Shown here piece by piece: positions 1-30,108 of a DNA stretch of 34,728 nucleotides. The notes beneath the pieces are model-generated. The model had not been told where the DNA came from. It was given only the letters and a program-made list of their open reading frames with translations, and made no database searches. Location of the stretch: positions 1 through 34,728 of the forward strand of contig LT635950.1 in assembly GCA_900128565.1 (NCBI GenBank), written 5' to 3'. Made by a program: the position numbers and the translations under genes. Positions within the stretch are counted from its first letter, which is position 1. Each line of letters starts with the position of its first letter. Source of the DNA: Stramenopiles sp. TOSAG23-6. Its lineage: Eukaryota.

Positions 1-143
1 ACGTTTACGCACCATCAATTTCGAATGTTTTTTTCTAGATAATCCAAATCCGATGTATTTTTTTGTTTGGTTTTTGTACGTATTTTTTTATTATAAAAAT
101 TTGTACCTAACAAAAAAAAATGACATATTTTTTTACAAAACAT

Positions 144-2735
144 TGGAGCATTGCAAGTAAGACCACCAATTGATGTATCCGTGTGTACTCAAGAATATTT
201 ACATGACCTTTATAAAAAAGATGTTAAAGTGATGTATGTTTTCATAATGAATTTTAAATTTATTTTTTTTGGTACGAAATTTTGTACCTAAACAAAGAAT
301 TTTTTTTTTGGAATATATTTTCATAATGAATTTCAATTTTTTTTTTCCGTACAATTTTTTTTTGTACTTTATGAATTTCAAAATGTAAAACATATTTTTT
401 CAAAATACATGCAATGGTTGTCTTTTGGTACAAACACTTTTCTGCCTGTTCAATTAATTGATTTGGAGTTACCACTTAAATCTCTAGATGAAAAAGACTG
501 TTCTACTACGACTACTACTAATAATAATAATAAGAAGAAGAATACAAATGATTCTACTACTATTACTACTAATAATAATACTATTACTACTACTACTAAT
601 AATAATACAAATGATTCTACTACTATTACTAATAATAATAATAATAATACAAATGATTCTACTACTACTACTACTAATAATAATAATAATACAAAGGATA
701 ATATTTTCTTAACTAAGCAATTGAATTGCAACTTAAGCGTATCATGGGACAGTGCGACTGCATCATTATTACGATTTCTGGGAATAGCAAATAGTGATAA
801 AGAGCATGGTATTATTGATGATATAGTAAACAAAACTGTTGATCAAAACAAATTTCATAATTATTATTCTGAAAATCGGTATGAAAATATCTGGTCTAAA
901 AAGCTTCGTACCATTTTAGTACAGATAGCTTGTGAAGGATCAGTAACACATACTACAAAAGTAAATGCAGCTGTTCAAGCATCAGAATTATTAGCAGGTT
1001 TATGCCCTCCACTGATGGAACGTCAACACAATATAGGTGAAAAGAATACAAACCCTAACCCCAATCATTTATCATCAAATATACGAAATACTCCAAATAA
1101 TATTTCCATAAATTATTCACCAAGTACAGATTTTACTACAAATTCAACAAAATCTTTATTATTAACACCTTTTCCACAAGTTCGTATTGGTTCTCCATTA
1201 ACTAATAAAACGAATCGAAGACGATCAAAATCTTTAAATTCAGAAAATGATCATATTAAAAAAGAAAAAACAGTTACAAAATTTGATGATGATGATTTTT
1301 CATTATCGGATAGTGGTAACAAAACTAACCATCACGAAACACCTGTTCAGTTTAGTTTATTCACTAATGATAATAATGATAATTCTACCATGAATGATAA
1401 AAGTCGGAAACGGTTTAGCAGTGCAATGTCGAATATCTCAAATATGTCAATGGAAAGTGATGTAGTTCAAATTGCTAGAGAGCAGTACGTTTTCATCATA
1501 ANTATTTTTTTTNAGAGTCTCTATGCTTTTTCATCATTAATTTTAAATGTATTTATTCATTTTTTTATAACATGAACTTTGGAATGTAACATATTTTTTC
1601 ACAATACATATACAGTAAAGGTATCATCAATGAAGAGGAACTTGACCAAGTTGTAGAGGCAGACCGTCGATGTAGTATTAATGACAACATAGATGGAATG
1701 AAACCAATACACTTATTACATGAATCAGACCAATTAAATGAGTCTTTAGAAGTGAATAATAAATTTCAAAAAAACAATTTAAAATATGAAAAACAAATTG
1801 TACCACCGACTCCACCGCCAACAACAACACGTCCACCACCACCAAGACTTCAAAAAAATGGTATTTCTTTTTCTGGTATCACAATTCGATGGCCTGATGT
1901 TTTAGGTGCAACACAATATGAAGTTCAAATTGGTCATCGATATATGTACGTTTTTCATCATTTAATTTCAAATTTATTATTTTTGTACTGAATCCAAAAG
2001 AATTCAAAAGTTACAAAAACTAACAAATGTTCAATTTGACATTTTTTTCCATAGTTCATTGGGGGTTGGCGTACAGCTGGTGGGGTAAGTAGTATAACAG
2101 CTGCAGCATTTGATAAAGATGATGCAATGAATAATACAGAATTCGATACGAAGGATGATGATAATATATCGAATTCTTTAGTACATTCGCATACCACTCC
2201 AACACGAAATACAGAAAACATACAAAACACACAAAAAACTCTAAAAAACTCTAAAAAAAAAAGTTCGATTACAAGAGCAACCAGTATAACAATAAATACA
2301 TTTTTAATACGTGGTCACTTATTAGAACGAGGGCGTAAGTACATTTGTCGCGTACGAGCTTTTTCAGTATTAGGTGGTTGGAGTGATTATAGCCGAGCAA
2401 GTGACGTCATTGCTTATGAAGGTTTTCCAATACCTGCACCACCAGCTAAAACAATTATTATTCCAGTTTCTCCAAAGGATGACACTGAAAAAATTCAGAT
2501 TTCATTAGGTACGAAACTTCGTACATATCAGCCCAAGTCTAAAGATCAAACAGAAAATAAGAAAAATAATAAAGTAACAACTTCATCTGAAGAACAGGAT
2601 AGCAAAACCCTAACCATAAGACAAACAAATAATAACAGCCCGAATAAAGATGATTCAAATAGTATCAATATTTCAGGTGACGTAAGTGATAGCGGATATA
2701 GCGAATTTGATGAAGATGCAATTCTTGATTTTTAA
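144..2735 (+). CDS. PDZ/FN3 protein, 3' part (copy 1). Exons 144-233, 411-1484, 1610-1945, 2060-2735
   Basis: ORFs 409..1575, 1698..1991 and 2127..2735 are joined in frame by GT-AT introns. FN3 motif spans the last two exons. Thr/Asn low-complexity tract present. Confidence 0.72.
234..410 (+). other. Putative GT-AT intron (177 nt, phase 2)
   Basis: gtg at|GTATGTTTTCATAATG...CATATTTTTTCAAAATACAT|g caa. The next downstream AG (468) is out of phase. Confidence 0.78.
503..692 (+). repeat. Coding (ACT)n/(AAT)n trinucleotide minisatellite encoding Thr/Asn runs
   Basis: Repeated aatacaaatgattctactactattactaataat units encoding NTNDSTTITNNN. Confidence 0.9.
1485..1609 (+). other. Putative GT-AT intron (125 nt, phase 2)
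   Basis: gag ca|GTACGTTTTCATCAT...CATATTTTTTCACAATACAT|a tac carries the 20-nt 3' motif. An in-frame CAG lies 6 nt further (1615), so canonical use is possible here. Confidence 0.65.
1946..2059 (+). other. Putative GT-AT intron (114 nt, phase 2)
   Basis: tat at|GTACGTTTTTCATCAT...ACTAAC...CATTTTTTTCCATAGTTCAT|t ggg. The TAG ending at 2054 would frameshift. The AT ending at 2059 gives FN3-like YEVQIGHRYIGGW. Confidence 0.8.
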
Positions 2736-2925
2736 TACGCTTCTTAATAAAACAATATTATCAATATCATATGTATTTTATTAGTTTTATTATGGCTGCC
2801 CAATCAAAGGTATATATTACCTATGACCCACTCAATATATAACGTATATAACTCAAAATATAATAGTGAAAACTTTCTGTATAGAAATAAGTTTCTATGG
2901 AACCCTGTGTAAAATTGATAGTCAT

Positions 2926-3126
2926 TCAATAAGTGCTAAAGTTACGAAAGCGAAAGCTTGGCATTAAACTCTTTGGTTGTTGAGGCTCACTTTCATGAGC
3001 TTCTAATTTCTTTGTTTTAATTAATGTTTTCGTTTTGGAAGGTGTTTCCATCGAAACAATACCAAAATAAAGACCAATTCCTATTAAAACAACAATACTA
3101 AATACTAGTGTTTTAAGACCAAACAT
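2926..3126 (-). CDS. Small putative single-pass membrane or secreted protein (66 aa from ATG)
   Basis: ATG in an A-rich context followed by hydrophobic LVFSIVVLIGIGLYFGIV and a polar tail. No recognised family. Copies at 13498-13698 +, 20679-20879 -, 31603-31803 +. Confidence 0.35.
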   Translation of the reverse strand: MFGLKTLVFSIVVLIGIGLYFGIVSMETPSKTKTLIKTKKLEAHESEPQQPKSLMPSFRFRNFSTY

Positions 3127-3457
3127 TTTTTTGACACTATTCGTCAAGAAATTATTAGATGAATCTCTCTATTAGTAAAATTATTGTAGTATAGTAGTGT
3201 ATCAATATGTAATACAGTGTATAGTCGTATATATAGTAGTACTGAATAGTAGTATATAGGATGAGGTAGTCTTTAATTTAACGCCGAGAGAAAAAAGAAA
3301 ATCACCGGATCTGAAAAAATACTTTTTTAAATACGGACTAGGGTTAGGGCTGGCATTTCCACGAAAAAAGTTTCAAAAAACATCACGAGTGGGTACCCCG
3401 AAGTATACTGCAAATTGTGTACTAGCACTAAGTTTTCTAAAGTATTCGTTTACACAA

Positions 3458-4620
3458 ATGGCATTACAATCAAATAAAATCTCAAAAGAGAATGATTCAT
3501 TACAATCAAATAAAATCTCAAAAGAGAATGATTCAAGTTTCCCACGTCCTCCTCTGCCACATGTAAAGTTACAAACTTCGTCTGCTACAGTCATAGTTTG
3601 CTTACATGGGGGTCATATTACCTCTTGGACGCTAAATGGCAGTGAAATTCTCTTTCTTAGTGAAAAAGCGGTGTTCAAACCTCCAAAAGCAATTCGTGGT
3701 GGAATACCTATATGCTTCCCTCAATTTAGTGATTGTGGACCAATGAAGAAAAGTCATGGGTTTGCACGGACGTTGACATGGACTCATGATAGTGACATCA
3801 TACAACATAGAAATGATAAAGACGAAATAACTTCATGTTCAACTTCGTTGTCTCTTTCCACATTTGTAAAAAGTTGGCCTTACAAGTATAACTTAAAAAT
3901 GCATATTTCAATTACTGAAAACACTTTACAACAAGATTTAATTGTAACAAACAATGGAAAACAAAAATTTGAGTTTACTGCTGTAATTTTACCTTCAATG
4001 ATTTTTTAATTTTTAATTTAAGATTTTCCAAATCTAATATTTCATATATTTTATTGGATACATCATTATCATACAGGCTCTTCATACATATTTTCGTCTA
4101 AACACCAATGCTACAAAGGTTAATGGATTACTTGGATGTACATATTTGGATTCCTTGGATAATCGAACACGAAAAACAGAAAGTGAAAAAGAAATTACAA
4201 TTGAAAATGAGATGGATCGGATTTATCTAAATGCACCTTCAAATATTATTTTACAAGACGATACAACTTGTATCAATGTGTTTTCGGATCATTCATCGAA
4301 TACAAATAATACACAAGGATTTCGTGATGGTGTATTGTGGAATCCTTGGATTGAAAAATCAAAACGCATGTTGGTTTTTCTTACATTTAAAATTATGGTT
4401 AGGGTTAGGGGTTACCCCTCATTTTTTTTTCTACGAAATTTTTACCTAACAAATTTTAAACTTTAAACATATTTTTGTACAAAACATGACTGATTTAAAT
4501 GATGATGAATATCATAATATGATATGTTACGAAGTCGCTCAAATAAATAATAAAATTGTGCTTGACGTTGGCGAAGAGTGGAAAGGATCACAAAAAATTG
4601 TTGTTTCGAAAGTGAAATAA
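3458..4620 (+). CDS. Glucose-6-phosphate 1-epimerase (D-hexose-6-phosphate mutarotase, aldose 1-epimerase family), 316 aa. Exons 3458-3982, 4077-4369, 4488-4620
   Basis: Family motifs LHGGHITSW, LFLSEKAVFKPPKAIRGGIPICFPQF, HGFAR, FTA|ALHTYF, EMDRIY, WNPWIEKSKRM|TDLNDDEYHNMICYE and GEEWKG. Confidence 0.93.
3464..3535 (+). repeat. Perfect 36-bp tandem duplication (LQSNKISKENDS x2)
   Basis: ttacaatcaaataaaatctcaaaagagaatgattca occurs twice in tandem. Confidence 0.95.
3983..4076 (+). other. Canonical GT-AG intron (94 nt, phase 0) in epimerase
   Basis: gct|GTAATT...CTAAT...TACAG|gct restores the conserved FTAALHTYF. Confidence 0.9.
4370..4487 (+). other. Non-canonical GT-AT intron (118 nt, phase 2) in epimerase
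   Basis: cgc at|GTTGGTTTTT...CCTAAC...CATATTTTTGTACAAAACAT|g act gat restores KRMTDLNDDEY. No usable AG acceptor. Confidence 0.87.
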
Positions 4621-4703
4621 ATTTATAATTTTTAAAGTCATAATATTGTGTTTTTTGAAAATATTTCATCCATTGGGAGGGTTACGTAGGGTTTTATAAT
4701 TTT

Positions 4704-7263
4704 TTAATCATTATATTGTGTTTTTTGAAAATATTTCATCCATTGAGTTGAACAGCCTCGAGCATTATTGATAATTTTTGTCTTTTGTTTCGTTCTTTGA
4801 CGTTTATGTTTTGCATTTGCTAGTTTGATCTTTGCTAAATTATCATCAAATTTGCTTTTTTTATTTCGTGTTTTTTTACTTTGTCGTGGTACTGCCGGAT
4901 GTCGACTTTTTAAATTATGTGGTACTAAAATTACCTTTTTGTTTTTTTTCTCTTTTCCATTTTGATTTGATGTACTATTTAATGTACTATTTAATTCTCT
5001 ACGAATTGAAGTCTTGGTGTCGTATTTCGTTTTTTCTTCATCGCTCTCATCGTCTGTGACTAATACTTCTTTCAAACCTCGATCAAATAATTCCGATTTC
5101 CTTTCAAATTCTTTTTGTCGTGCAACTCGACGAGGATGCGGTGCTAACTTAGATCCAAGTTGATTTGCTAATAAATAAACATCACCACGCTCCCCACTGC
5201 CAAATGTACAACTTGGTGCTCTTTTAAATCGGGAGTCAAAATGTGAAACAACTTTATCAGGAAAATTTGCAGTTGTTGTTTCAGAATATGATGTAGACAC
5301 ACATATTTTGTGAAAAAATATGCCAAAAAAAAACAAAAATTCGTTAGGTATATAAAATTTGATACAAAAAAAATAATTTCGAAATTCATAATAAAAACAT
5401 ACCCATAGAATTATGAATTACTCGATATAAATCGTCTCTATCTGCAGCACCAAAATCATGATCACATGAAGATTTTCGACGTTTTGCTGCTGCATTATCA
5501 AAAGTTGATGTTACAATTGTAGAGTCGTGCTGATCACTTTTATCTATAAACTGAACAGTATTTAAAACATTTGACAATTTCTCACAATCTTCTCGACTTG
5601 ATTTTCCAAAATCAACACGAGAGGGTGTTCGAAAGCGTGAGTTATGTGTAGTGTAAAATACTTTATGGTAATCAATACTATCATTCACTTGAGACATATC
5701 CTGTGGTAATAAAGCACCTAAATCATTGTGTCGTTTATAAATATCAGATCGTTTTGATTTTCCAAAATCAACAGACGGTGGATTAGGTACACGTGAATTA
5801 TGTTTGGTATAGAATACCTTATTATAATCAACAGAATCACCAAACTCTGACATATCACGAGGTCGAAGTCCACCAAGCAGATTTGCTTGTTTTAACATAT
5901 CATCTCTTGTTGAAGCACCAAAATCAACAGACGGTGGATTAGGTACACGTGAATTATGTTTGGTATAGAATACCTTATTATAATCAACAGAATCACCAAA
6001 CTCTGACATATCACGAGGTCGAAGTCCACCAAGTAGATTTGCATGTTTTAACATCTCTTCTCGGCTTGAAGCACCAAAATCAACACGTGAGGGTGTTCGA
6101 AAACGTGAGTTATGTTCCGTTGTAAACGCTTTATTATAATCTATGGAGTCATTGAACTCTGACATATCTCTAGGTAGTAATGCTCCTAAATCATTATTAC
6201 GAAATTTTATGTCGTCTCGTTGTGAAACACCAAAATCAACACGAGAGGGTGTTCGAAAGCGTGAGTTATGTGTAGTGTAAAATACTTTATGGTAATCAAC
6301 ACTATCATTCACTTGAGACTTATCCTGTGGTAATAAAGCACCTAAATCATTGTGTCGTTTATAAATATCAGATCTTTTTGATTTTCCAAAATCAACAGAT
6401 GGTGGATTAGGTACACGTGAATTATGTTTTGTGTAGAATACCTTATTATAGTCAACTGAATCAATTTCGTCGGATTTATCAATCACACGAGCACCAGGCA
6501 TGCCTGTGGCTAATTTCGCTGCAGAAATTCTTGAAGATGCTCCAAAATCAACACGTGATGGTGTTCGAAAACGTGAGTTATGTTCCGTTGTAAACGCTTT
6601 ATTATAATCTATGGAATCCCCGAATTCTGACATATCTCTAGGTAATGTTTGTTCTAATTCATTGTGTCGTTTATAAATATCAGATCGTTTTGATTTTCCA
6701 AAATCAACAGACGGTGGATTAGGTACACGTGAATTATGTTTGGTATAGAATACCTTATTATAATCAACAGAATCACCAAACTCTGACATATCACGAGGTC
6801 GAAGTCCACCAAGCAGATTTGCTTGTTTTAACATATCATCTCTTGTTGAAGCACCAAAATCAACAGACGGTGGATTAGGTACACGTGAATTATGTTTGGT
6901 ATAGAATACCTTATTATAATCAACAGAATCACCAAACTCTGACATATCACGAGGTCGAAGTCCACCAAGCAGATTTGCATGTTTTAACATATCATCTCGA
7001 CTAGAGGCACCAAAATCCACAGAAGGGGCATTCGGTGTTCGAGATTCTGAATATGTCACTCGTTTTTTGGTGTTTTTGGAAGAAGAGGCTTGTTCTGAAA
7101 AAAAATGTTTTAACTTTTCATCTGCCAACTGTCCTTTTCGTGTTCTTTCATCCAGAGATTTTTTGTAATTGGTTTGTGCAGACTTTGTACGCCTTGCTAT
7201 TGACTCTCTTTCATGCCTTGGGAATGTTTTGTTTGTATCTGGTGACGAATTTGGGCGATTCAT
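4704..7263 (-). CDS. 52-aa tandem-repeat protein (819 aa). Exons 7263-5403, 5302-4704. Function unknown, possibly cytoskeletal or ciliary
   Basis: 625-aa ORF with DFG motifs every 156 bp, joined to the 210-aa ORF by a GT-AT intron. An 11th degenerate repeat spans the junction. Confidence 0.82.
5303..5402 (-). other. Putative GT-AT intron (100 nt, phase 1) in repeat-protein gene (11222-11321 + in copy 2)
   Basis: atg g|GTATGTTTTTATTATG...CCTAAC...CATATTTTTTCACAAAATAT|gt gtg gives a 50-aa DFG-to-TFG unit, against 33 aa with the first in-frame AAG. Confidence 0.78.
5449..7017 (-). repeat. Coding tandem array, 10 x 156 bp
   Basis: In copy 2 the GAT of DFG falls at 9607, 9763, 9919, 10075, 10231, 10387, 10543, 10699, 10855, 11011 and 11167, an exact 156-nt period. 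Confidence 0.95.
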
Positions 7264-7549
7264 TTCGTACTTTTTCCGTGAACACAGAGGGAAATAATAG
7301 CACTTGGTGCCAGCAGAAGTAATTTTTTTTTTGAAACGTTATCCTTATTTTTTAACGTACGATACAATTTTTAGATTTCGATTGATTTCGTGTTTTCAAA
7401 CATCATTTTTGTGACTGAGTCTTTCTTTGACGTGTCCGGTGGTGGCCAAACACAAAACAATGTCTACTTTTTAGTCCACAATATCATGATCATACTACGT
7501 TGTACATTGTTCAAAGGTAATTAACATAATTGTATTTAACACAACAATT

Positions 7550-8284
7550 ATGTTGGATATCCGTTTGTATAGTAAAAAAAAGAAAAAAAAGAAACGTGGA
7601 GCAAGAGGAAAGAAGAAAAAAACAGGTCCAAAGTCAAAAAGTCAACAAAACTCTCAAATTGTATCCCAGCAACATCCTGCAAACAAAACAGCATTAATTT
7701 CAGATCACATTTTACCATTACATAATTTATATGATGATAAACATGTGTGTTCTAAACCCAATTCAAATATATATTTGGTTGATAAAAACAAAATCGTGTC
7801 CAAAGCAGTAAAAAAAGAGAGTTTTTCAAAGAATCAAACCTCTGTAAAAAAAGAGAGTTTTTCAAAGAATCAAACCTCAGTAAAAAAAGAGAGTTTTTCA
7901 AAGAATCAAACCTCCTTGACTGAAAAAAAAACATATATTGTCTAGAGAGGAACCTTCTTATTCTACTTCATCATATTCTCTCGACTGGAAAACAACACAT
8001 AGTATATCTCAAAAACATCACTATAACTGGGCATCCAAACACAAGATATTACATACTATTGACACTATTGACAACAAAACTGTAGATTTGTTGAACGAGA
8101 ATAAATGGCATTACGAAAGTAATGCACCTAAAAATACAATTGTAATTGAAAAGCCTAACCCTATCGATGTTGATGTATTTGATACTGATTTAGAAGTAAT
8201 TGGTGATACACTACGTACATTAACACAACAAGATTCATATTGTTTGCCTTCTTTGTTATTACAAGATTGTTCGTTAGGTACAAA
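7550..8284 (+). CDS. Lys-rich hypothetical protein, frameshifted near 7931-7945 and 3'-truncated by the unit end (may be a pseudogene or sequencing error)
   Basis: ORFs 7550..7945 and 7938..8339 overlap in adjacent frames next to an A9 run. Basic NLS-like N-terminus and 3x VKKESFSKNQTS. Copies at 8340-9074 -, 25303-26092 +, 26390-27179 -. Confidence 0.45.
7808..7915 (+). repeat. 3 x 36-bp coding tandem repeat (VKKESFSKNQTS)
   Basis: gtaaaaaaagagagtttttcaaagaatcaaacctcN three times. Confidence 0.95.
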
Positions 8285-8298
8285 ATTTGGTACAGATT

Positions 8299-8299
<1 letters not shown>

Positions 8300-8334
<35 letters not shown>
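8300..8334 (+). repeat. Poly(A) tract at unit end
   Basis: About 35 consecutive A, adjacent to both inversion junctions. Confidence 0.95.
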
Positions 8335-8337
<3 letters not shown>

Positions 8338-9360
8338 AATTTGTACCTAACGAACAATCTTGTAATAACAAAGAAGGCAAACAATATGAATCTTGTTGTG
8401 TTAATGTACGTAGTGTATCACCAATTACTTCTAAATCAGTATCAAATACATCAACATCGATAGGGTTAGGCTTTTCAATTACAATTGTATTTTTAGGTGC
8501 ATTACTTTCGTAATGCCATTTATTCTCGTTCAACAAATCTACAGTTTTGTTGTCAATAGTGTCAATAGTATGTAATATCTTGTGTTTGGATGCCCAGTTA
8601 TAGTGATGTTTTTGAGATATACTATGTGTTGTTTTCCAGTCGAGAGAATATGATGAAGTAGAATAAGAAGGTTCCTCTCTAGACAATATATGTTTTTTTT
8701 TCAGTCAAGGAGGTTTGATTCTTTGAAAAACTCTCTTTTTTTACTGAGGTTTGATTCTTTGAAAAACTCTCTTTTTTTACAGAGGTTTGATTCTTTGAAA
8801 AACTCTCTTTTTTTACTGCTTTGGACACGATTTTGTTTTTATCAACCAAATATATATTTGAATTGGGTTTAGAACACACATGTTTATCATCATATAAATT
8901 ATGTAATGGTAAAATGTGATCTGAAATTAATGCTGTTTTGTTTGCAGGATGTTGCTGGGATACAATTTGAGAGTTTTGTTGACTTTTTGACTTTGGACCT
9001 GTTTTTTTCTTCTTTCCTCTTGCTCCACGTTTCTTTTTTTTCTTTTTTTTACTATACAAACGGATATCCAACATAATTGTTGTGTTAAATACAATTATGT
9101 TAATTACCTTTGAACAATGTACAACGTAGTATGATCATGATATTGTGGACTAAAAAGTAGACATTGTTTTGTGTTTGGCCACCACCGGACACGTCAAAGA
9201 AAGACTCAGTCACAAAAATGATGTTTGAAAACACGAAATCAATCGAAATCTAAAAATTGTATCGTACGTTAAAAAATAAGGATAACGTTTCAAAAAAAAA
9301 ATTACTTCTGCTGGCACCAAGTGCTATTATTTCCCTCTGTGTTCACGGAAAAAGTACGAA

Positions 9361-11920
9361 ATGAATCGCCCAAATTCGTCACCAGATACAAACAAAACAT
9401 TCCCAAGGCATGAAAGAGAGTCAATAGCAAGGCGTACAAAGTCTGCACAAACCAATTACAAAAAATCTCTGGATGAAAGAACACGAAAAGGACAGTTGGC
9501 AGATGAAAAGTTAAAACATTTTTTTTCAGAACAAGCCTCTTCTTCCAAAAACACCAAAAAACGAGTGACATATTCAGAATCTCGAACACCGAATGCCCCT
9601 TCTGTGGATTTTGGTGCCTCTAGTCGAGATGATATGTTAAAACATGCAAATCTGCTTGGTGGACTTCGACCTCGTGATATGTCAGAGTTTGGTGATTCTG
9701 TTGATTATAATAAGGTATTCTATACCAAACATAATTCACGTGTACCTAATCCACCGTCTGTTGATTTTGGTGCTTCAACAAGAGATGATATGTTAAAACA
9801 AGCAAATCTGCTTGGTGGACTTCGACCTCGTGATATGTCAGAGTTTGGTGATTCTGTTGATTATAATAAGGTATTCTATACCAAACATAATTCACGTGTA
9901 CCTAATCCACCGTCTGTTGATTTTGGAAAATCAAAACGATCTGATATTTATAAACGACACAATGAATTAGAACAAACATTACCTAGAGATATGTCAGAAT
10001 TCGGGGATTCCATAGATTATAATAAAGCGTTTACAACGGAACATAACTCACGTTTTCGAACACCATCACGTGTTGATTTTGGAGCATCTTCAAGAATTTC
10101 TGCAGCGAAATTAGCCACAGGCATGCCTGGTGCTCGTGTGATTGATAAATCCGACGAAATTGATTCAGTTGACTATAATAAGGTATTCTACACAAAACAT
10201 AATTCACGTGTACCTAATCCACCATCTGTTGATTTTGGAAAATCAAAAAGATCTGATATTTATAAACGACACAATGATTTAGGTGCTTTATTACCACAGG
10301 ATAAGTCTCAAGTGAATGATAGTGTTGATTACCATAAAGTATTTTACACTACACATAACTCACGCTTTCGAACACCCTCTCGTGTTGATTTTGGTGTTTC
10401 ACAACGAGACGACATAAAATTTCGTAATAATGATTTAGGAGCATTACTACCTAGAGATATGTCAGAGTTCAATGACTCCATAGATTATAATAAAGCGTTT
10501 ACAACGGAACATAACTCACGTTTTCGAACACCCTCACGTGTTGATTTTGGTGCTTCAAGCCGAGAAGAGATGTTAAAACATGCAAATCTACTTGGTGGAC
10601 TTCGACCTCGTGATATGTCAGAGTTTGGTGATTCTGTTGATTATAATAAGGTATTCTATACCAAACATAATTCACGTGTACCTAATCCACCGTCTGTTGA
10701 TTTTGGTGCTTCAACAAGAGATGATATGTTAAAACAAGCAAATCTGCTTGGTGGACTTCGACCTCGTGATATGTCAGAGTTTGGTGATTCTGTTGATTAT
10801 AATAAGGTATTCTATACCAAACATAATTCACGTGTACCTAATCCACCGTCTGTTGATTTTGGAAAATCAAAACGATCTGATATTTATAAACGACACAATG
10901 ATTTAGGTGCTTTATTACCACAGGATATGTCTCAAGTGAATGATAGTATTGATTACCATAAAGTATTTTACACTACACATAACTCACGCTTTCGAACACC
11001 CTCTCGTGTTGATTTTGGAAAATCAAGTCGAGAAGATTGTGAGAAATTGTCAAATGTTTTAAATACTGTTCAGTTTATAGATAAAAGTGATCAGCACGAC
11101 TCTACAATTGTAACATCAACTTTTGATAATGCAGCAGCAAAACGTCGAAAATCTTCATGTGATCATGATTTTGGTGCTGCAGATAGAGACGATTTATATC
11201 GAGTAATTCATAATTCTATGGGTATGTTTTTATTATGAATTTCGAAATTATTTTTTTTGTATCAAATTTTATATACCTAACGAATTTTTGTTTTTTTTTG
11301 GCATATTTTTTCACAAAATATGTGTGTCTACATCATATTCTGAAACAACAACTGCAAATTTTCCTGATAAAGTTGTTTCACATTTTGACTCCCGATTTAA
11401 AAGAGCACCAAGTTGTACATTTGGCAGTGGGGAGCGTGGTGATGTTTATTTATTAGCAAATCAACTTGGATCTAAGTTAGCACCGCATCCTCGTCGAGTT
11501 GCACGACAAAAAGAATTTGAAAGGAAATCGGAATTATTTGATCGAGGTTTGAAAGAAGTATTAGTCACAGACGATGAGAGCGATGAAGAAAAAACGAAAT
11601 ACGACACCAAGACTTCAATTCGTAGAGAATTAAATAGTACATTAAATAGTACATCAAATCAAAATGGAAAAGAGAAAAAAAACAAAAAGGTAATTTTAGT
11701 ACCACATAATTTAAAAAGTCGACATCCGGCAGTACCACGACAAAGTAAAAAAACACGAAATAAAAAAAGCAAATTTGATGATAATTTAGCAAAGATCAAA
11801 CTAGCAAATGCAAAACATAAACGTCAAAGAACGAAACAAAAGACAAAAATTATCAATAATGCTCGAGGCTGTTCAACTCAATGGATGAAATATTTTCAAA
11901 AAACACAATATAATGATTAA
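9361..11920 (+). CDS. 52-aa tandem-repeat protein (copy 2). Exons 9361-11221, 11322-11920
   Basis: Inverted copy of 4704-7263. Confidence 0.8.
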
Positions 11921-12003
11921 AAAATTATAAAACCCTACGTAACCCTCCCAATGGATGAAATATTTTCAAAAAACACAATATTATGACTTTAAAAATTATA
12001 AAT

Positions 12004-13166
12004 TTATTTCACTTTCGAAACAACAATTTTTTGTGATCCTTTCCACTCTTCGCCAACGTCAAGCACAATTTTATTATTTATTTGAGCGACTTCGTAACAT
12101 ATCATATTATGATATTCATCATCATTTAAATCAGTCATGTTTTGTACAAAAATATGTTTAAAGTTTAAAATTTGTTAGGTAAAAATTTCGTAGAAAAAAA
12201 AATGAGGGGTAACCCCTAACCCTAACCATAATTTTAAATGTAAGAAAAACCAACATGCGTTTTGATTTTTCAATCCAAGGATTCCACAATACACCATCAC
12301 GAAATCCTTGTGTATTATTTGTATTCGATGAATGATCCGAAAACACATTGATACAAGTTGTATCGTCTTGTAAAATAATATTTGAAGGTGCATTTAGATA
12401 AATCCGATCCATCTCATTTTCAATTGTAATTTCTTTTTCACTTTCTGTTTTTCGTGTTCGATTATCCAAGGAATCCAAATATGTACATCCAAGTAATCCA
12501 TTAACCTTTGTAGCATTGGTGTTTAGACGAAAATATGTATGAAGAGCCTGTATGATAATGATGTATCCAATAAAATATATGAAATATTAGATTTGGAAAA
12601 TCTTAAATTAAAAATTAAAAAATCATTGAAGGTAAAATTACAGCAGTAAACTCAAATTTTTGTTTTCCATTGTTTGTTACAATTAAATCTTGTTGTAAAG
12701 TGTTTTCAGTAATTGAAATATGCATTTTTAAGTTATACTTGTAAGGCCAACTTTTTACAAATGTGGAAAGAGACAACGAAGTTGAACATGAAGTTATTTC
12801 GTCTTTATCATTTCTATGTTGTATGATGTCACTATCATGAGTCCATGTCAACGTCCGTGCAAACCCATGACTTTTCTTCATTGGTCCACAATCACTAAAT
12901 TGAGGGAAGCATATAGGTATTCCACCACGAATTGCTTTTGGAGGTTTGAACACCGCTTTTTCACTAAGAAAGAGAATTTCACTGCCATTTAGCGTCCAAG
13001 AGGTAATATGACCCCCATGTAAGCAAACTATGACTGTAGCAGACGAAGTTTGTAACTTTACATGTGGCAGAGGAGGACGTGGGAAACTTGAATCATTCTC
13101 TTTTGAGATTTTATTTGATTGTAATGAATCATTCTCTTTTGAGATTTTATTTGATTGTAATGCCAT
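12004..13166 (-). CDS. Glucose-6-phosphate 1-epimerase (copy 2)
   Basis: Inverted copy of 3458-4620. Confidence 0.88.
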
Positions 13167-13888
13167 TTGTGTAAACGAATACTTTAGAAAACTTAGTGCT
13201 AGTACACAATTTGCAGTATACTTCGGGGTACCCACTCGTGATGTTTTTTGAAACTTTTTTCGTGGAAATGCCAGCCCTAACCCTAGTCCGTATTTAAAAA
13301 AGTATTTTTTCAGATCCGGTGATTTTCTTTTTTCTCTCGGCGTTAAATTAAAGACTACCTCATCCTATATACTACTATTCAGTACTACTATATATACGAC
13401 TATACACTGTATTACATATTGATACACTACTATACTACAATAATTTTACTAATAGAGAGATTCATCTAATAATTTCTTGACGAATAGTGTCAAAAAAATG
13501 TTTGGTCTTAAAACACTAGTATTTAGTATTGTTGTTTTAATAGGAATTGGTCTTTATTTTGGTATTGTTTCGATGGAAACACCTTCCAAAACGAAAACAT
13601 TAATTAAAACAAAGAAATTAGAAGCTCATGAAAGTGAGCCTCAACAACCAAAGAGTTTAATGCCAAGCTTTCGCTTTCGTAACTTTAGCACTTATTGAAT
13701 GACTATCAATTTTACACAGGGTTCCATAGAAACTTATTTCTATACAGAAAGTTTTCACTATTATATTTTGAGTTATATACGTTATATATTGAGTGGGTCA
13801 TAGGTAATATATACCTTTGATTGGGCAGCCATAATAAAACTAATAAAATACATATGATATTGATAATATTGTTTTATTAAGAAGCGTA

Positions 13889-16800
13889 TTAAAAATCAAG
13901 AATTGCATCTTCATCAAATTCGCTATATCCGCTATCACTTACGTCACCTGAAATATTGATACTATTTGAATCATCTTTATTCGGGCTGTTATTATTTGTT
14001 TGTCTTATGGTTAGGGTTTTGCTATCCTGTTCTTCAGATGAAGTTGTTACTTTATTATTTTTCTTATTTTCTGTTTGATCTTTAGACTTGGGCTGATATG
14101 TACGAAGTTTCGTACCTAATGAAATCTGAATTTTTTCAGTGTCATCCTTTGGAGAAACTGGAATAATAATTGTTTTAGCTGGTGGTGCAGGTATTGGAAA
14201 ACCTTCATAAGCAATGACGTCACTTGCTCGGCTATAATCACTCCAACCACCTAATACTGAAAAAGCTCGTACGCGACAAATGTACTTACGCCCTCGTTCT
14301 AATAAGTGACCACGTATTAAAAATGTATTTATTGTTATACTGGTTGCTCTTGTAATCGAACTTTTTTTTTTAGAGTTTTTTAGAGTTTTTTGTGTGTTTT
14401 GTATGTTTTCTGTATTTCGTGTTGGAGTGGTATGCGAATGTACTAAAGAATTCGATATATTATCATCATCCTTCGTATCGAATTCTGTATTATTCATTGC
14501 ATCATCTTTATCAAATGCTGCAGCTGTTATACTACTTACCCCACCAGCTGTACGCCAACCCCCAATGAACTATGGAAAAAAATGTCAAATTGAACATTTG
14601 TTAGTTTTTGTAACTTTTGAATTCTTTTGGATTCAGTACAAAAATAATAAATTTGAAATTAAATGATGAAAAACGTACATATATCGATGACCAATTTGAA
14701 CTTCATATTGTGTTGCACCTAAAACATCAGGCCATCGAATTGTGATACCAGAAAAAGAAATACCATTTTTTTGAAGTCTTGGTGGTGGTGGACGTGTTGT
14801 TGTTGGCGGTGGAGTCGGTGGTACAATTTGTTTTTCATATTTTAAATTGTTTTTTTGAAATTTATTATTCACTTCTAAAGACTCATTTAATTGGTCTGAT
14901 TCATGTAATAAGTGTATTGGTTTCATTCCATCTATGTTGTCATTAATACTACATCGACGGTCTGCCTCTACAACTTGGTCAAGTTCCTCTTCATTGATGA
15001 TACCTTTACTGTATATGTATTGTGAAAAAATATGTTACATTCCAAAGTTCATGTTATAAAAAAATGAATAAATACATTTAAAATTAATGATGAAAAAGCA
15101 TAGAGACTCTNAAAAAAAATANTTATGATGAAAACGTACTGCTCTCTAGCAATTTGAACTACATCACTTTCCATTGACATATTTGAGATATTCGACATTG
15201 CACTGCTAAACCGTTTCCGACTTTTATCATTCATGGTAGAATTATCATTATTATCATTAGTGAATAAACTAAACTGAACAGGTGTTTCGTGATGGTTAGT
15301 TTTGTTACCACTATCCGATAATGAAAAATCATCATCATCAAATTTTGTAACTGTTTTTTCTTTTTTAATATGATCATTTTCTGAATTTAAAGATTTTGAT
15401 CGTCTTCGATTCGTTTTATTAGTTAATGGAGAACCAATACGAACTTGTGGAAAAGGTGTTAATAATAAAGATTTTGTTGAATTTGTAGTAAAATCTGTAC
15501 TTGGTGAATAATTTATGGAAATATTATTTGGAGTATTTCGTATATTTGATGATAAATGATTGGGGTTAGGGTTTGTATTCTTTTCACCTATATTGTGTTG
15601 ACGTTCCATCAGTGGAGGGCATAAACCTGCTAATAATTCTGATGCTTGAACAGCTGCATTTACTTTTGTAGTATGTGTTACTGATCCTTCACAAGCTATC
15701 TGTACTAAAATGGTACGAAGCTTTTTAGACCAGATATTTTCATACCGATTTTCAGAATAATAATTATGAAATTTGTTTTGATCAACAGTTTTGTTTACTA
15801 TATCATCAATAATACCATGCTCTTTATCACTATTTGCTATTCCCAGAAATCGTAATAATGATGCAGTCGCACTGTCCCATGATACGCTTAAGTTGCAATT
15901 CAATTGCTTAGTTAAGAAAATATTATCCTTTGTATTATTATTATTATTAGTAGTAGTAGTAGTAGAATCATTTGTATTATTATTATTATTATTAGTAATA
16001 GTAGTAGAATCATTTGTATTATTATTAGTAGTAGTAGTAATAGTATTATTATTAGTAGTAATAGTAGTAGAATCATTTGTATTCTTCTTCTTATTATTAT
16101 TATTAGTAGTAGTCGTAGTAGAACAGTCTTTTTCATCTAGAGATTTAAGTGGTAACTCCAAATCAATTAATTGAACAGGCAGAAAAGTGTTTGTACCAAA
16201 AGACAACCATTGCATGTATTTTGAAAAAATATGTTTTACATTTTGAAATTCATAAAGTACAAAAAAAAATTGTACGGAAAAAAAAAATTGAAATTCATTA
16301 TGAAAATATATTCCAAAAAAAAAATTCTTTGTTTAGGTACAAAATTTCGTACCAAAAAAAATAAATTTAAAATTCATTATGAAAACATACATCACTTTAA
16401 CATCTTTTTTATAAAGGTCATGTAAATATTCTTGAGTACACACGGATACATCAATTGGTGGTCTTACTTGCAATGCTCCAATGTTTTGTAAAAAAATATG
16501 TCATTTTTTTTTGTTAGGTACAAATTTTTATAATAAAAAAATACGTACAAAAACCAAACAAAAAAATACATCGGATTTGGATTATCTAGAAAAAAACATT
16601 CGAAATTGATGGTGCGTAAACGTACATAGATGCTAATGCTATGGCTGTAGGTAATGTAATTGGAATACATCCAGTGATATTCATCATAGTTGAACTATTT
16701 GTTTTTGAATGTATCGTTTTAGATGTAGATCCCAAATTCAACATGCTTGAACGTCTTAATTTTGGTGTTGTATTCTTACTTGTATTTAACATACTTGAAC

Positions 16801-17753
16801 TTCTTGGTTTTGGTGTTGTAGTATTAGTATTAGTATAATGTGAAAATGTATCATCATTGGTATGCAAATTCGATATTAAGTCACTATTGAATTTTGTAAC
16901 TAAAGATTTTTTTGTACCTAATGAATTTCGAATTTGTTGTGACTCTTCACTTAAACCTGCTCGTCGCATTGCTAACATCTCCATAGCATCTCGCATTTGT
17001 TTAAGCTCAATCTCTTGTGCAGCAATTCGATTTTCTTGAGCAATAATGCGCAATTGTAAAGCTTTTTGCATTTGACACGTGTCATTACTATTAGGGTTAT
17101 CGATGTTTGAGTCAGGAGAATGAAATGAAAGTTGAGAATTTCGAGAGTACCGTGGTGATATTGGTGGTGTTGTTGGTGGTGATGGCATTTGTTTCATTAT
17201 CTCTTGTGGTGACTTATTTAGTGTATTTCGTGTTTTATACGACATCGTAGAATCATTGTCCATCATTAAAGTAGTAAATTCAATAGTCCGTTGATACATA
17301 TTTCGTTCATGTATTGTGGAAAAATATGTTGTATTTGAAAATTGTCAATAAAAAATCCTTAGGTACAAAATGTGGCGCAAAAATATAAATAAAAATTGTT
17401 ACGTACGAAATTTACGAAATTTCATACGAAAAATACATAAATTTAAAATTCATGATGAAAACGTACATGTAAATACTCCACAATATCTGCAAATTTCCAA
17501 TGTAAAACTTTTGTACTATCAATTGTTTGTATCCACATTCCAGGTGATACACCCTTTTTCTTTAACTCATTAATTCTATTGAGTACAGTAGTCACTGTGT
17601 TATTTCGTGTTTTATTACTAGGGTTAGGATTTCCCACAATTTTTGTAGGCGTTTTTTTGCCTTCATTAAAATTTTCAATCTGCGCTCCTCTTCTATGCAA
17701 ACCACACTTTAATTGCAAACCCAATGCACCAGAAGGGACATTAACAATAACAG
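13889..17753 (-). CDS. PDZ-domain and fibronectin type III domain protein, 5'-partial. Exons 17753-17467, 17308-16626, 16480-16391, 16213-15140, 15014-14679, 14564-13889 (most complete copy)
   Basis: N-terminal VIVNVPSGALGLQL...GVSPGMWIQTIDSTKVLHWKFADIVEYLH|ERNMYQRTIEF resembles a PDZ fold (GLGL-type loop, alphaB, betaF). C-terminal ITIRWPDVLGATQYEVQ...GGW...LERGRKYICRVRAFSVLGGWSDYS matches the FN3 pattern. Five GT-AT introns join all ORF segments in frame to TAA. Domain calls are by eye. Confidence 0.75.
16481..16625 (-). other. Putative GT-AT intron (145 nt, phase 2); positions 1-143 are this intron minus its first GT
   Basis: tct at|GTACGTTTAC...CCTAAC...CATATTTTTTTACAAAACAT|t gga gives ALAS-I-GALQ. 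An in-frame AAG 18 nt downstream is an alternative acceptor. Confidence 0.72.
17309..17466 (-). other. Putative non-canonical GT-AT intron (158 nt, phase 0)
   Basis: Minus strand cat|GTACGTTTTCATCATG...CATATTTTTCCACAATACAT|gaa joins EYLH to ERNMYQ within the PDZ-like domain. The internal AAG (17358) is out of frame. Confidence 0.8.
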
Positions 17754-17896
17754 ACGTTTACGCACCATCAATTTCGAATGTTTTTTTCTAGATAATCCAA
17801 ATCCGATGTATTTTTTTGTTTGGTTTTTGTACGTATTTTTTTATTATAAAAATTTGTACCTAACAAAAAAAAATGACATATTTTTTTACAAAACAT

Positions 17897-20488
17897 TGGA
17901 GCATTGCAAGTAAGACCACCAATTGATGTATCCGTGTGTACTCAAGAATATTTACATGACCTTTATAAAAAAGATGTTAAAGTGATGTATGTTTTCATAA
18001 TGAATTTTAAATTTATTTTTTTTGGTACGAAATTTTGTACCTAAACAAAGAATTTTTTTTTTGGAATATATTTTCATAATGAATTTCAATTTTTTTTTTC
18101 CGTACAATTTTTTTTTGTACTTTATGAATTTCAAAATGTAAAACATATTTTTTCAAAATACATGCAATGGTTGTCTTTTGGTACAAACACTTTTCTGCCT
18201 GTTCAATTAATTGATTTGGAGTTACCACTTAAATCTCTAGATGAAAAAGACTGTTCTACTACGACTACTACTAATAATAATAATAAGAAGAAGAATACAA
18301 ATGATTCTACTACTATTACTACTAATAATAATACTATTACTACTACTACTAATAATAATACAAATGATTCTACTACTATTACTAATAATAATAATAATAA
18401 TACAAATGATTCTACTACTACTACTACTAATAATAATAATAATACAAAGGATAATATTTTCTTAACTAAGCAATTGAATTGCAACTTAAGCGTATCATGG
18501 GACAGTGCGACTGCATCATTATTACGATTTCTGGGAATAGCAAATAGTGATAAAGAGCATGGTATTATTGATGATATAGTAAACAAAACTGTTGATCAAA
18601 ACAAATTTCATAATTATTATTCTGAAAATCGGTATGAAAATATCTGGTCTAAAAAGCTTCGTACCATTTTAGTACAGATAGCTTGTGAAGGATCAGTAAC
18701 ACATACTACAAAAGTAAATGCAGCTGTTCAAGCATCAGAATTATTAGCAGGTTTATGCCCTCCACTGATGGAACGTCAACACAATATAGGTGAAAAGAAT
18801 ACAAACCCTAACCCCAATCATTTATCATCAAATATACGAAATACTCCAAATAATATTTCCATAAATTATTCACCAAGTACAGATTTTACTACAAATTCAA
18901 CAAAATCTTTATTATTAACACCTTTTCCACAAGTTCGTATTGGTTCTCCATTAACTAATAAAACGAATCGAAGACGATCAAAATCTTTAAATTCAGAAAA
19001 TGATCATATTAAAAAAGAAAAAACAGTTACAAAATTTGATGATGATGATTTTTCATTATCGGATAGTGGTAACAAAACTAACCATCACGAAACACCTGTT
19101 CAGTTTAGTTTATTCACTAATGATAATAATGATAATTCTACCATGAATGATAAAAGTCGGAAACGGTTTAGCAGTGCAATGTCGAATATCTCAAATATGT
19201 CAATGGAAAGTGATGTAGTTCAAATTGCTAGAGAGCAGTACGTTTTCATCATAANTATTTTTTTTNAGAGTCTCTATGCTTTTTCATCATTAATTTTAAA
19301 TGTATTTATTCATTTTTTTATAACATGAACTTTGGAATGTAACATATTTTTTCACAATACATATACAGTAAAGGTATCATCAATGAAGAGGAACTTGACC
19401 AAGTTGTAGAGGCAGACCGTCGATGTAGTATTAATGACAACATAGATGGAATGAAACCAATACACTTATTACATGAATCAGACCAATTAAATGAGTCTTT
19501 AGAAGTGAATAATAAATTTCAAAAAAACAATTTAAAATATGAAAAACAAATTGTACCACCGACTCCACCGCCAACAACAACACGTCCACCACCACCAAGA
19601 CTTCAAAAAAATGGTATTTCTTTTTCTGGTATCACAATTCGATGGCCTGATGTTTTAGGTGCAACACAATATGAAGTTCAAATTGGTCATCGATATATGT
19701 ACGTTTTTCATCATTTAATTTCAAATTTATTATTTTTGTACTGAATCCAAAAGAATTCAAAAGTTACAAAAACTAACAAATGTTCAATTTGACATTTTTT
19801 TCCATAGTTCATTGGGGGTTGGCGTACAGCTGGTGGGGTAAGTAGTATAACAGCTGCAGCATTTGATAAAGATGATGCAATGAATAATACAGAATTCGAT
19901 ACGAAGGATGATGATAATATATCGAATTCTTTAGTACATTCGCATACCACTCCAACACGAAATACAGAAAACATACAAAACACACAAAAAACTCTAAAAA
20001 ACTCTAAAAAAAAAAGTTCGATTACAAGAGCAACCAGTATAACAATAAATACATTTTTAATACGTGGTCACTTATTAGAACGAGGGCGTAAGTACATTTG
20101 TCGCGTACGAGCTTTTTCAGTATTAGGTGGTTGGAGTGATTATAGCCGAGCAAGTGACGTCATTGCTTATGAAGGTTTTCCAATACCTGCACCACCAGCT
20201 AAAACAATTATTATTCCAGTTTCTCCAAAGGATGACACTGAAAAAATTCAGATTTCATTAGGTACGAAACTTCGTACATATCAGCCCAAGTCTAAAGATC
20301 AAACAGAAAATAAGAAAAATAATAAAGTAACAACTTCATCTGAAGAACAGGATAGCAAAACCCTAACCATAAGACAAACAAATAATAACAGCCCGAATAA
20401 AGATGATTCAAATAGTATCAATATTTCAGGTGACGTAAGTGATAGCGGATATAGCGAATTTGATGAAGATGCAATTCTTGATTTTTAA
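17897..20488 (+). CDS. PDZ/FN3 protein, 3' part (copy 3)
   Basis: Copy of 144-2735. Confidence 0.65.
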
Positions 20489-21210
20489 TACGCTTCTTAA
20501 TAAAACAATATTATCAATATCATATGTATTTTATTAGTTTTATTATGGCTGCCCAATCAAAGGTATATATTACCTATGACCCACTCAATATATAACGTAT
20601 ATAACTCAAAATATAATAGTGAAAACTTTCTGTATAGAAATAAGTTTCTATGGAACCCTGTGTAAAATTGATAGTCATTCAATAAGTGCTAAAGTTACGA
20701 AAGCGAAAGCTTGGCATTAAACTCTTTGGTTGTTGAGGCTCACTTTCATGAGCTTCTAATTTCTTTGTTTTAATTAATGTTTTCGTTTTGGAAGGTGTTT
20801 CCATCGAAACAATACCAAAATAAAGACCAATTCCTATTAAAACAACAATACTAAATACTAGTGTTTTAAGACCAAACATTTTTTTGACACTATTCGTCAA
20901 GAAATTATTAGATGAATCTCTCTATTAGTAAAATTATTGTAGTATAGTAGTGTATCAATATGTAATACAGTGTATAGTCGTATATATAGTAGTACTGAAT
21001 AGTAGTATATAGGATGAGGTAGTCTTTAATTTAACGCCGAGAGAAAAAAGAAAATCACCGGATCTGAAAAAATACTTTTTTAAATACGGACTAGGGTTAG
21101 GGCTGGCATTTCCACGAAAAAAGTTTCAAAAAACATCACGAGTGGGTACCCCGAAGTATACTGCAAATTGTGTACTAGCACTAAGTTTTCTAAAGTATTC
21201 GTTTACACAA

Positions 21211-22373
21211 ATGGCATTACAATCAAATAAAATCTCAAAAGAGAATGATTCATTACAATCAAATAAAATCTCAAAAGAGAATGATTCAAGTTTCCCACGT
21301 CCTCCTCTGCCACATGTAAAGTTACAAACTTCGTCTGCTACAGTCATAGTTTGCTTACATGGGGGTCATATTACCTCTTGGACGCTAAATGGCAGTGAAA
21401 TTCTCTTTCTTAGTGAAAAAGCGGTGTTCAAACCTCCAAAAGCAATTCGTGGTGGAATACCTATATGCTTCCCTCAATTTAGTGATTGTGGACCAATGAA
21501 GAAAAGTCATGGGTTTGCACGGACGTTGACATGGACTCATGATAGTGACATCATACAACATAGAAATGATAAAGACGAAATAACTTCATGTTCAACTTCG
21601 TTGTCTCTTTCCACATTTGTAAAAAGTTGGCCTTACAAGTATAACTTAAAAATGCATATTTCAATTACTGAAAACACTTTACAACAAGATTTAATTGTAA
21701 CAAACAATGGAAAACAAAAATTTGAGTTTACTGCTGTAATTTTACCTTCAATGATTTTTTAATTTTTAATTTAAGATTTTCCAAATCTAATATTTCATAT
21801 ATTTTATTGGATACATCATTATCATACAGGCTCTTCATACATATTTTCGTCTAAACACCAATGCTACAAAGGTTAATGGATTACTTGGATGTACATATTT
21901 GGATTCCTTGGATAATCGAACACGAAAAACAGAAAGTGAAAAAGAAATTACAATTGAAAATGAGATGGATCGGATTTATCTAAATGCACCTTCAAATATT
22001 ATTTTACAAGACGATACAACTTGTATCAATGTGTTTTCGGATCATTCATCGAATACAAATAATACACAAGGATTTCGTGATGGTGTATTGTGGAATCCTT
22101 GGATTGAAAAATCAAAACGCATGTTGGTTTTTCTTACATTTAAAATTATGGTTAGGGTTAGGGGTTACCCCTCATTTTTTTTTCTACGAAATTTTTACCT
22201 AACAAATTTTAAACTTTAAACATATTTTTGTACAAAACATGACTGATTTAAATGATGATGAATATCATAATATGATATGTTACGAAGTCGCTCAAATAAA
22301 TAATAAAATTGTGCTTGACGTTGGCGAAGAGTGGAAAGGATCACAAAAAATTGTTGTTTCGAAAGTGAAATAA
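21211..22373 (+). CDS. Glucose-6-phosphate 1-epimerase (copy 3)
   Basis: Direct copy of 3458-4620. Confidence 0.88.
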
Positions 22374-22456
22374 ATTTATAATTTTTAAAGTCATAATATT
22401 GTGTTTTTTGAAAATATTTCATCCATTGGGAGGGTTACGTAGGGTTTTATAATTTT

Positions 22457-26051: not shown

Positions 26052-26090
<39 letters not shown>

Positions 26091-26092
26091 AA

Positions 26093-26389: not shown

Positions 26390-26391
26390 TT

Positions 26392-26430
<39 letters not shown>

Positions 26431-30025: not shown

Positions 30026-30108
30026 AAAATTATAAAACCCTACGTAACCCTCCCAATGGATGAAATATTTTCAAAAAACACAATATTATGACTTTAAAAA
30101 TTATAAAT

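Follow-up and report, generated by a model that had tools for sequence, protein, structure and literature searches.

An intron without a usable AG in an epimerase gene of an uncultured stramenopile: a probable member of an introner-like family ending in AT

The window considered here is the whole stretch of DNA that was analysed, namely the 34,728 nucleotides of contig LT635950.1 (GenBank assembly GCA_900128565.1, Stramenopiles sp. TOSAG23-6), an AT-rich sequence with a guanine-plus-cytosine (GC) content of about 0.3. It carries a gene of three exons for a glucose-6-phosphate 1-epimerase-like protein (3458-4620, forward strand), together with two further genes, termed gene A and gene C. This report is concerned with the second interruption of the epimerase gene, a stretch of 118 nucleotides which offers no usable AG at its 3' end, and with six related introns of the same locus. 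The window itself is a fold-back concatemer in which a unit of about 8.3-8.5 kilobases (kb) is repeated in four arms of alternating orientation that are 100% identical, and it has the appearance of a chimera formed during amplification or assembly. The independent sequence therefore amounts to only about 9.4 kb, repeat counts are inflated fourfold, and the four copies of the 118-nucleotide intron count as one. The sequencing runs that carry the stretch are marine, and the source label of a public protein, P0001, is the single indication that suggests a MAST-3-type marine stramenopile as the host.

The closest named relatives of the epimerase are the glucose-6-phosphate 1-epimerases of plants and green algae, with about 40-45% identity. 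Exons 1 and 2 both lie above the cut-off (27 bits) of the Pfam family Aldose_epim (PF01263). The junction across the ordinary first intron, FEFTA/ALHTYF, is uninterrupted in homologues such as P0002. Exon 2 ends in ...WNPWIEKSKRM, with its final ATG at 4368-4370, and exon 3 reads TDLNDDEYHNMICYEVAQ... from 4489 to a stop codon at 4618-4620. Exon 2 aligns to residues 158-247 of yeast YMR099c (PDB 2ciq), a hexose-6-phosphate mutarotase / glucose-6-phosphate 1-epimerase and thus a protein of the same type. When the profile of homologues is compared with 2ciq (E = 9e-55), the Glu of the C-x-E motif falls on Glu264, which we take to be the catalytic residue. The counterpart of Glu264 is present only in the product spliced without an AG, as the contiguous WNPW...C-x-E stretch with its predicted catalytic Glu is kept only by the model in which the 118 nucleotides are removed.

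The original prediction, made from the sequence alone, had recognized the 118 nucleotides that separate WNPWIEKSKRM from exon 3, and the sequence bears this out; the stretch was described correctly in content, with the W codon beginning at 4338, one base ahead of the 4339 given for it. The AGs within the interruption, which the prediction had described as followed by a TAA in the frame of the last exon, are found at 4401-4402 and 4407-4408 only, and the TAA at 4447-4449 is followed directly by an open frame, 4450-4620. The next AG, held to be unusable, lies at 4533-4534, where its A completes the Glu codon (4531-4533) and its G opens the following codon; it is out of phase and past the Glu codon. 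Hence no in-phase AG is available as the 3' end of this intron. Its 5' site is the GT at 4370-4371 (GTTGGT). A CATG direct repeat at the two ends allows the cut to move three nucleotides to the left and one to the right with the mRNA unchanged, so that five cuts, from 4367-4484 through 4371-4488, are equivalent (CA-AA, AT-AC, TG-CA, GT-AT and TT-TG); the earlier remark that GT-AT and AT-AC yield the same message is therefore correct. The interruption also contains a putative branch site, an ACCTAAC box 37 nucleotides upstream of its 3' end, and a T-run at 4472-4476, and its GC content is 0.25 as against 0.30-0.35 in the adjoining exons.

Removal of the 118 nucleotides yields a product of 316 amino acids. 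The prediction had expected homologues to continue across the junction unbroken, and this was found when the spliced product was aligned with P0001-P0060 (60 of 120 proteins) and 40 rows were inspected: 38 of the 39 foreign homologues listed show no gap across the junction, the exception being P0011, which is without one residue two positions later. The WNPW...C-x-E motif is thus contiguous in the family, as had been claimed. The junction was further assessed with a profile built from 113 of 119 foreign homologues, against which 3289 in-frame, stop-free candidates were scored. The top 17 candidates all excise 118 nucleotides and reach 277-281 bits; homology thereby sets the length excised and resolves the position of the cut only to about 6 nucleotides. 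The best GT/GC-AG candidate attains 252.7 bits and the runner-up of that class 232.4, and the unspliced, truncated product scores 229.6 bits. Read-through or frameshifting across the 118 nucleotides was considered and dropped, since stops are present and the 31-39 extra residues would fall within the conserved motif.

The best GT/GC-AG candidate is identical to the public model P0001 (314 amino acids; identical over exon 1), in which a GT-AG intron is placed at 4411-4534 and 13 intron-coded residues stand in place of TDLNDDEYHNMICYE. This is the only near-length GT-AG model for the interruption, and it lacks the C-x-E Glu that aligns to Glu264 of 2ciq. P0001 is a mis-annotation that results from forcing canonical splice sites. 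The proposition that a functional enzyme needs a junction without AG is accordingly supported, given that no AG-based junction keeps the WNPW...C-x-E stretch.

Beyond what had been predicted, the intron proves to be one of seven (i1-i7) with the same ends, found in the ~9.4 kb of unique sequence and distributed over three genes; gene A has five of them, and the epimerase gene (i4) and gene C have one each. Of the eight introns that could be defined in these genes, at least seven belong to this family, and each of the seven is in sense relative to its host gene. The members share a 5' block, GTAYGTTTTCAT..., or in longer form GTAYGTTTTCATMAT..., with further similarity over about 40 nucleotides; the core is GTAYGT in six of them, and the 5' end of i4, GTTGGTTTTTCTTACAT, is the most diverged of the family. 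At the other end stands a common 3' block of 21 nucleotides, ACATATTTTTNYAMAAWACAT. Allowing up to 3 mismatches, this block matches the window 21 times, which corresponds to 6 distinct sites, as against 0.02 expected by chance, and a seventh, diverged copy (16 of 21 positions) closes i6. Most members carry a CTAAC-type box 32-49 nucleotides before the intron end (similar boxes occur in i1, i6 and i7), followed by a T-run, and the sequence at the cut is ...A[CT]AT; the GT-AG intron 1 of the epimerase gene ends in ...CATACAG. GC content is 0.21 in the family introns vs 0.335 in exons. In five of the seven members the length is not a multiple of three, and i2, when read through in frame by hand, runs into a stop. 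The features of the locus are collected in Table 1.

Table 1. Coordinates of the epimerase gene, the family introns, gene C and the repeated arms of the window
Feature	Position	Strand	Remark
Epimerase exon 1, 175 codons	3458..3982	+	Pfam Aldose_epim 70.2 bits, profile positions 2-154 of 299
Epimerase intron 1, ordinary GT-AG, 94 nt	3983..4076	+	read from sequence
Epimerase exon 2	4077..4369 (GT-AT register; 4370 if cut after ATG)	+	Aldose_epim positions 156-257, 28.6 bits
118-nt intron without usable AG (i4)	4370..4487 (GT-AT register)	+	sequence, homologue profile, family rule
CATG direct repeat	5' copy 4367..4370, 3' copy 4485..4488	+	
ACCTAAC box, putative branch site, in i4	4444..4450	+	read from sequence; putative function
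21-nt 3' block in i4	4467..4487	+	motif scan
Epimerase exon 3 and stop	4488..4620	+	Aldose_epim positions 264-298, 15.3 bits alone
Cys-Tyr-Glu codons of exon 3	4525-4533	+	
i2 (gene A), 177 nt	234..410	+	in frame by GT-AT rule
i3 (gene A), 125 nt	1485..1609	+	no direct repeat; GT-AT sole pair in register
i6 (gene A), 114 nt	1946..2059	+	3' block 16/21
i7 (gene C), 100 nt	5303..5402	-	no internal AG; homologue support
i1 (gene A), 145 nt	16481..16625	-	in frame by GT-AT rule
i5 (gene A), 158 nt	17309..17466	-	in frame by GT-AT rule
Gene C	4704-7338	-	at least nine 52-aa tandem repeats (156-nt period, 5562-7109); conserved C-terminal ...W[VM]K[YH]FQ tail
Fold-back unit copies	1-8284 (+), 8340-16623 (-), 17754-26240 (+), 26390-34728 (-)		
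Unique segment, 1100 nt	16639-17738		
Fold-back centres	A-run 8296-8334; N run 26093-26389		
Identical copies of i4 in other arms	12137-12254 (-), 22123-22240 (+), 30242-30359 (-)		same assembled sequence, non-independent
(nt, nucleotides; aa, amino acids)

A single rule describes where these introns appear to be cut. Excision that begins with the G of the 5' block and ends with the final T of the 3' block preserves the reading frame in 7/7 cases and joins gene A into one frame of 1047 codons that reaches its stop; the chance of such an outcome is about (1/3)^6 to (1/3)^7, or roughly 1 in 700 to 1 in 2000. Direct repeats let the cut slide by 2-6 positions in six members and by none in i3, and GT-AT is the only terminal pair permitted in all seven. 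At register -2 the pair is AT-AC in only four (i5, i1, i2 and i4), with CA-AC in i3, AT-TC in i6 and GG-AT in i7. The alternatives that would restore a canonical GT-AG cut differ from member to member. In i4 the only near-length one breaks the motif that we take to be catalytic. For i7 none of the 1049 in-frame candidates is GT/GC-AG, and the nearest alternative removes 17 amino acids; the homologues P0122 and P0123 align continuously across its junction, and the distance to the next conserved FG motif comes to 46 amino acids (hand count) vs 45 and 47 in these two proteins. The nearest GT-AG alternatives for i5 remove at least 32 amino acids, and those for i2 either remove at least 13 or add at least 34 that are intron-coded and rich in phenylalanine. 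In i1 a GT-AG alternative exists that removes 6 amino acids, in i3 an in-frame one lies 6 nucleotides further on, and in i6 the pair GT(1946)-AG(2054), of 109 nucleotides, is out of frame and GT(1950)-AG(2054) is in frame. Pfam searches with the exons of genes A and C gave no match above cut-off, and the junctions of gene A are placed by reading frame only, because no family was matched on its exons.

Support in DNA and RNA was sought by mapping the contigs of four runs to positions 1514-5500. An independent marine metagenome, run X4, contains a contig of 264 nucleotides (record 14) that corresponds to 4168-4431 with one difference and extends from exon 2 into 61 nucleotides of the intron; the 118-nucleotide intron is thus no amplification artefact. 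No joined form of this locus occurs in the DNA contigs examined, and three joints in run X4, with sides of 20-24 nucleotides, were rated spurious. Contigs from the polyadenylated (polyA) metatranscriptomes of two studies (X7 and X8) cover only 3478-3781 in exon 1, at 99% identity or above. In RNA-type library contigs of run X12, the intron 5' block (matching 1946-1984 and 5337-5372) stands behind exons unlike those of this locus, and the block is therefore dispersed elsewhere in the genome of the organism or of its relatives. When metagenome contigs were scanned for the 3' block, at least 118 loci were obtained; among the 120 motif matches listed, none has a CCTAA box upstream and one (L082) has a GTAYGT-like hexamer, so the matches are taken as chance occurrences in AT-rich DNA and no relatives were gained.

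From frames, homology and signals together, splicing of the family introns may be proposed. It is likely, in our judgement, that the 118 nucleotides are spliced out as an intron whose 3' end is not AG, whether by a GT-AT/U2-type or by an AT-AC/minor route. The more specific reading towards which we lean is that of a spliceosomal intron which ends in AT instead of AG, is GT-AT in register, is handled by the U2-type route and belongs to an introner-like family. Each family intron would then begin with a U2-type 5' site set within the longer conserved block, the RNA would be spliced at the points given by the frame rule, presumably by the major (U2-type) spliceosome, and the 3' splice site would be marked by the conserved block rather than by an AG, with the cut falling directly after the last T of that block. 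In its simplest form, this would mean that the major spliceosome of the organism takes G or T as the last intron base and that the block positions the site. A possible aid is pairing between the last four bases of the intron, ACAU, and the AU/GU at the 5' junction, which could form in four of the seven members and with 3 of 4 pairs in a fifth. Rather more tentatively, and short of calling it probable, we suggest that this self-similar family ending in AT is the predominant intron class of the lineage, with its 3' site set by the 21-nucleotide block, either because the spliceosome has been transformed or because an introner carries its own non-AG signal.

Several points weigh against this interpretation. 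The sample is confined to a single locus (about 9.4 kb) of a single assembly, and i1, i3 and i6 are not decisive by themselves, as each has an in-frame GT-AG alternative within 6 amino acids. Homology anchors i4 and i7 only, and the case for i5 and i2 is made solely by how far a GT-AG cut would alter the product. The exon ends in AT in five of seven members, which is also compatible with a reading in which AT comes first and with duplication of a target site. The first and last bases of an intron ordinarily make a G-G contact, with which a terminal U is at odds. None of the RNA contigs over 1514-5500 reaches any of the seven junctions, their coverage stopping at 3781; their absence there is no evidence against splicing. 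Finally, exon 3 (43 amino acids) occurs in no protein of at least 77 amino acids in a collection of 5.8 billion except the mis-modelled P0001.

Among the other explanations, the one nearest to ours concerns the chemistry and leaves the mRNA the same, namely an AT-AC cut (4368-4485) made by the minor (U12-like) or the major spliceosome, with the 3' block acting as a branch site near the 3' end. We consider it unlikely, though it has several features on its side: its register is permitted in the four members named above, five of seven members have AT on the exon side ahead of GT, and the extended conservation of both ends resembles that of U12-type introns, for which distance determines the 3' site and an end other than AG is tolerated. 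The U12-type branch motif TTCCTTRAC has no exact match near the 3' end; ...TTTTYACAA..., 7-15 nucleotides from the end in the conserved 3' block, is possibly a diverged form of it. According to PMC1557818, it is for the U12-type machinery that splicing of GT-AT and AT-AN introns has been demonstrated, and 10.1101/2020.10.12.336362 describes an expanded minor system in Physarum with an altered branch motif, 9-12 nucleotides from the 3' end. However, the same register fails to give AT-AC in i3, i6 and i7, and the 5' ends do not match the U12-type motif [AG]TATCCTT, being ATGTTGGT or GTTGGTTT in the 118-nucleotide intron and GTAYGTTTT in the family. The GTAYGT core, the CTAAC box 32-49 nucleotides upstream and the T-run are all U2-type features, and a Rfam scan of positions 1-17800, which is what was searched of the genome, found no family and hence no gene for U11, U12, U4atac or U6atac in the window.

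Other explanations dispense with the spliceosome or with splicing altogether. The 118 nucleotides could be an unspliced insertion of a dispersed repeat, in which case this epimerase copy would be a pseudogene or would yield a truncated or aberrant protein such as P0001; the lack of a spliced transcript among the contigs and proteins searched, the membership of the element in a dispersed repeat family and the likeness of the CATG direct repeat to a target-site duplication all agree with this. It is nevertheless improbable, since the exons on either side are intact, open and conserved with all invariant residues of the family retained, exon 1 is present in polyA RNA libraries, and seven elements in three genes are all in sense orientation and restore the frame on removal; that three adjacent genes should have died in one precise way is hard to accept. 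Even less credence can be given to removal outside the spliceosome, by excision at the DNA level, by RNA splicing with a structure-guided endonuclease and ligase, or by translational bypass between two ATG codons. Such routes would make use of the direct repeats at both ends (CATG; slides of 2-6 positions in six of seven members) and of the short terminal palindrome CATGTT...AACATG, which closes the predicted fold of i4. That fold has a closing helix of only 6 base pairs, however, the ends are palindromic over 4-6 nucleotides only, long inverted repeats are absent, and no significant secondary structure joins the intron ends, the folds being no more stable than shuffled sequences (z = 0.0 for i4 and -0.17 for i1; -2.74 for i7). 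In addition, the intron has spliceosomal signals in its 5' GTAYGT, CTAAC box and T-run, bulk environmental DNA carries the intron and showed no joined form, and the translational bypass gaps known to us are far below 100-177 nucleotides. Least of all do we believe in an artefact of single-cell amplification or assembly. The window, as a fold-back concatemer with 100% identical arms, does show that the assembly contains chimeras, but the exon-intron boundary is spanned by the independent metagenome contig (4168-4431, one difference), and chimeric joins cannot yield seven members with coherent intron signals.

The surroundings of the epimerase gene show further features. Gene C has homologues (P0121-P0130, from an exhaustive search) and no Pfam family, and is an uncharacterised repeat-protein family. 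It is convergent with the epimerase gene, the two stop codons being only 84 nucleotides apart, and a direct repeat of about 37 nucleotides (4641-4676 and 4709-4747) duplicates the last codons of gene C (reverse strand) between them. Gene D (7486-8339, forward strand) begins with a probable short GT-AG intron (~7519-7574) and has no Pfam match. In gene A, a PDZ-like reading of the first exon is an impression only, with nothing above the Pfam cut-off; when its exon Ed was compared with longer proteins, no relative was found among 8000 scored candidates, from which low-complexity words probably crowded out real ones. Exon 1 of the epimerase gene contains a tandem duplication of 39 nucleotides (3471-3548) that repeats SNKISKENDS; the polyA RNA contigs of X7 and X8 carry it too and differ at one position, 3532. 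A telomere-like GGGTTAGGG occurs upstream of the epimerase start codon (3341-3349) and again inside the 118-nucleotide intron (4396-4410), each copy with a GGTWACCCC box and a CYACGAAA box alongside, and the three elements may constitute a shared regulatory module. As a key feature of the locus, GGGTTAGGG was dropped, because its 25 hits in the window, vs 1.2 expected, represent only about 5 distinct sites, of which some are coding.

The AG of the 3' splice site is among the most constant signals of eukaryotic genes, and introns that end in AT are missed by standard gene prediction. If the interpretation given here is true, gene catalogues of uncultured protists that are bound to GT-AG would be systematically mis-modelled, and some instances of gene decay or low gene counts would possibly be artefacts of annotation. 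The family would also provide a clean natural system for studying 3' site recognition in the second step of splicing, as well as an example of an intron family that spreads with an unorthodox signal. Should it extend genome-wide, a fresh look at the protein sets, the completeness scores and the gene losses claimed for these abundant uncultured ocean grazers would be needed.

Single GT-AT introns, introner families and lineages with many non-canonical introns are already known. In the literature, we came across no account of a uniform GT-AT family that has a fixed 21-nucleotide 3' block, nor, in main texts, of non-canonical introns in MAST lineages, for which supplements may hold intron statistics; the word 'splice' is absent from the main texts of PMC5778133 and 10.64898/2026.04.17.719054, as are 'canonical' and 'GT-AG' from that of PMC5778133.

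Among known systems, the family stands close to the yeast-type U2 intron, GTATGT ... TACTAAC ... YAG, with which it shares the 5' GTAYGT, a CTAAC-type box and a short length, and from which it differs in that the last base is T, not G, and the conserved blocks are longer. The introners of Micromonas pusilla and Aureococcus anophagefferens, the latter being, like the host here, a stramenopile, are likewise short, similar introns found in sense orientation in many genes with direct repeats at the insertion site (in part after PMC7789003). In contrast to the present family, with its non-AG 3' site and no real inverted repeat, these introners use canonical splice sites, and those of Aureococcus bear terminal inverted repeats whose length is constant. 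The non-canonical introns and introners of Amoebophrya, as described in PMC7789003, resemble the present case in the marine protist host, the repeated families, the failure of gene predictors and the direct repeats of 3-5 nucleotides over exon-intron boundaries that render the cut ambiguous. They show no preferred terminal dinucleotides and form hairpins from inverted repeats of 8-20 nucleotides, whereas here the ends are uniformly GT...AT and only short palindromes without a significant fold are present. The U12-type introns of human, mouse and Physarum (AT-AC or, rarely, GT-AT; PMC1557818 and 10.1101/2020.10.12.336362) share the non-AG 3' ends, the extended motifs at the ends and a 3' site set by a conserved element, but have [AG]TATCCTT where the family has GTAYGT... 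together with a CTAAC box and a T-run. GT-AT itself is a rare and yet spliceable pair, represented in PMC1557818 by a conserved U2-type case in DGCR2, by 7 U12-type cases and by experimental competence. Among the known cases it accounts for a small minority, whereas in the family reported here it is the rule (7/7).

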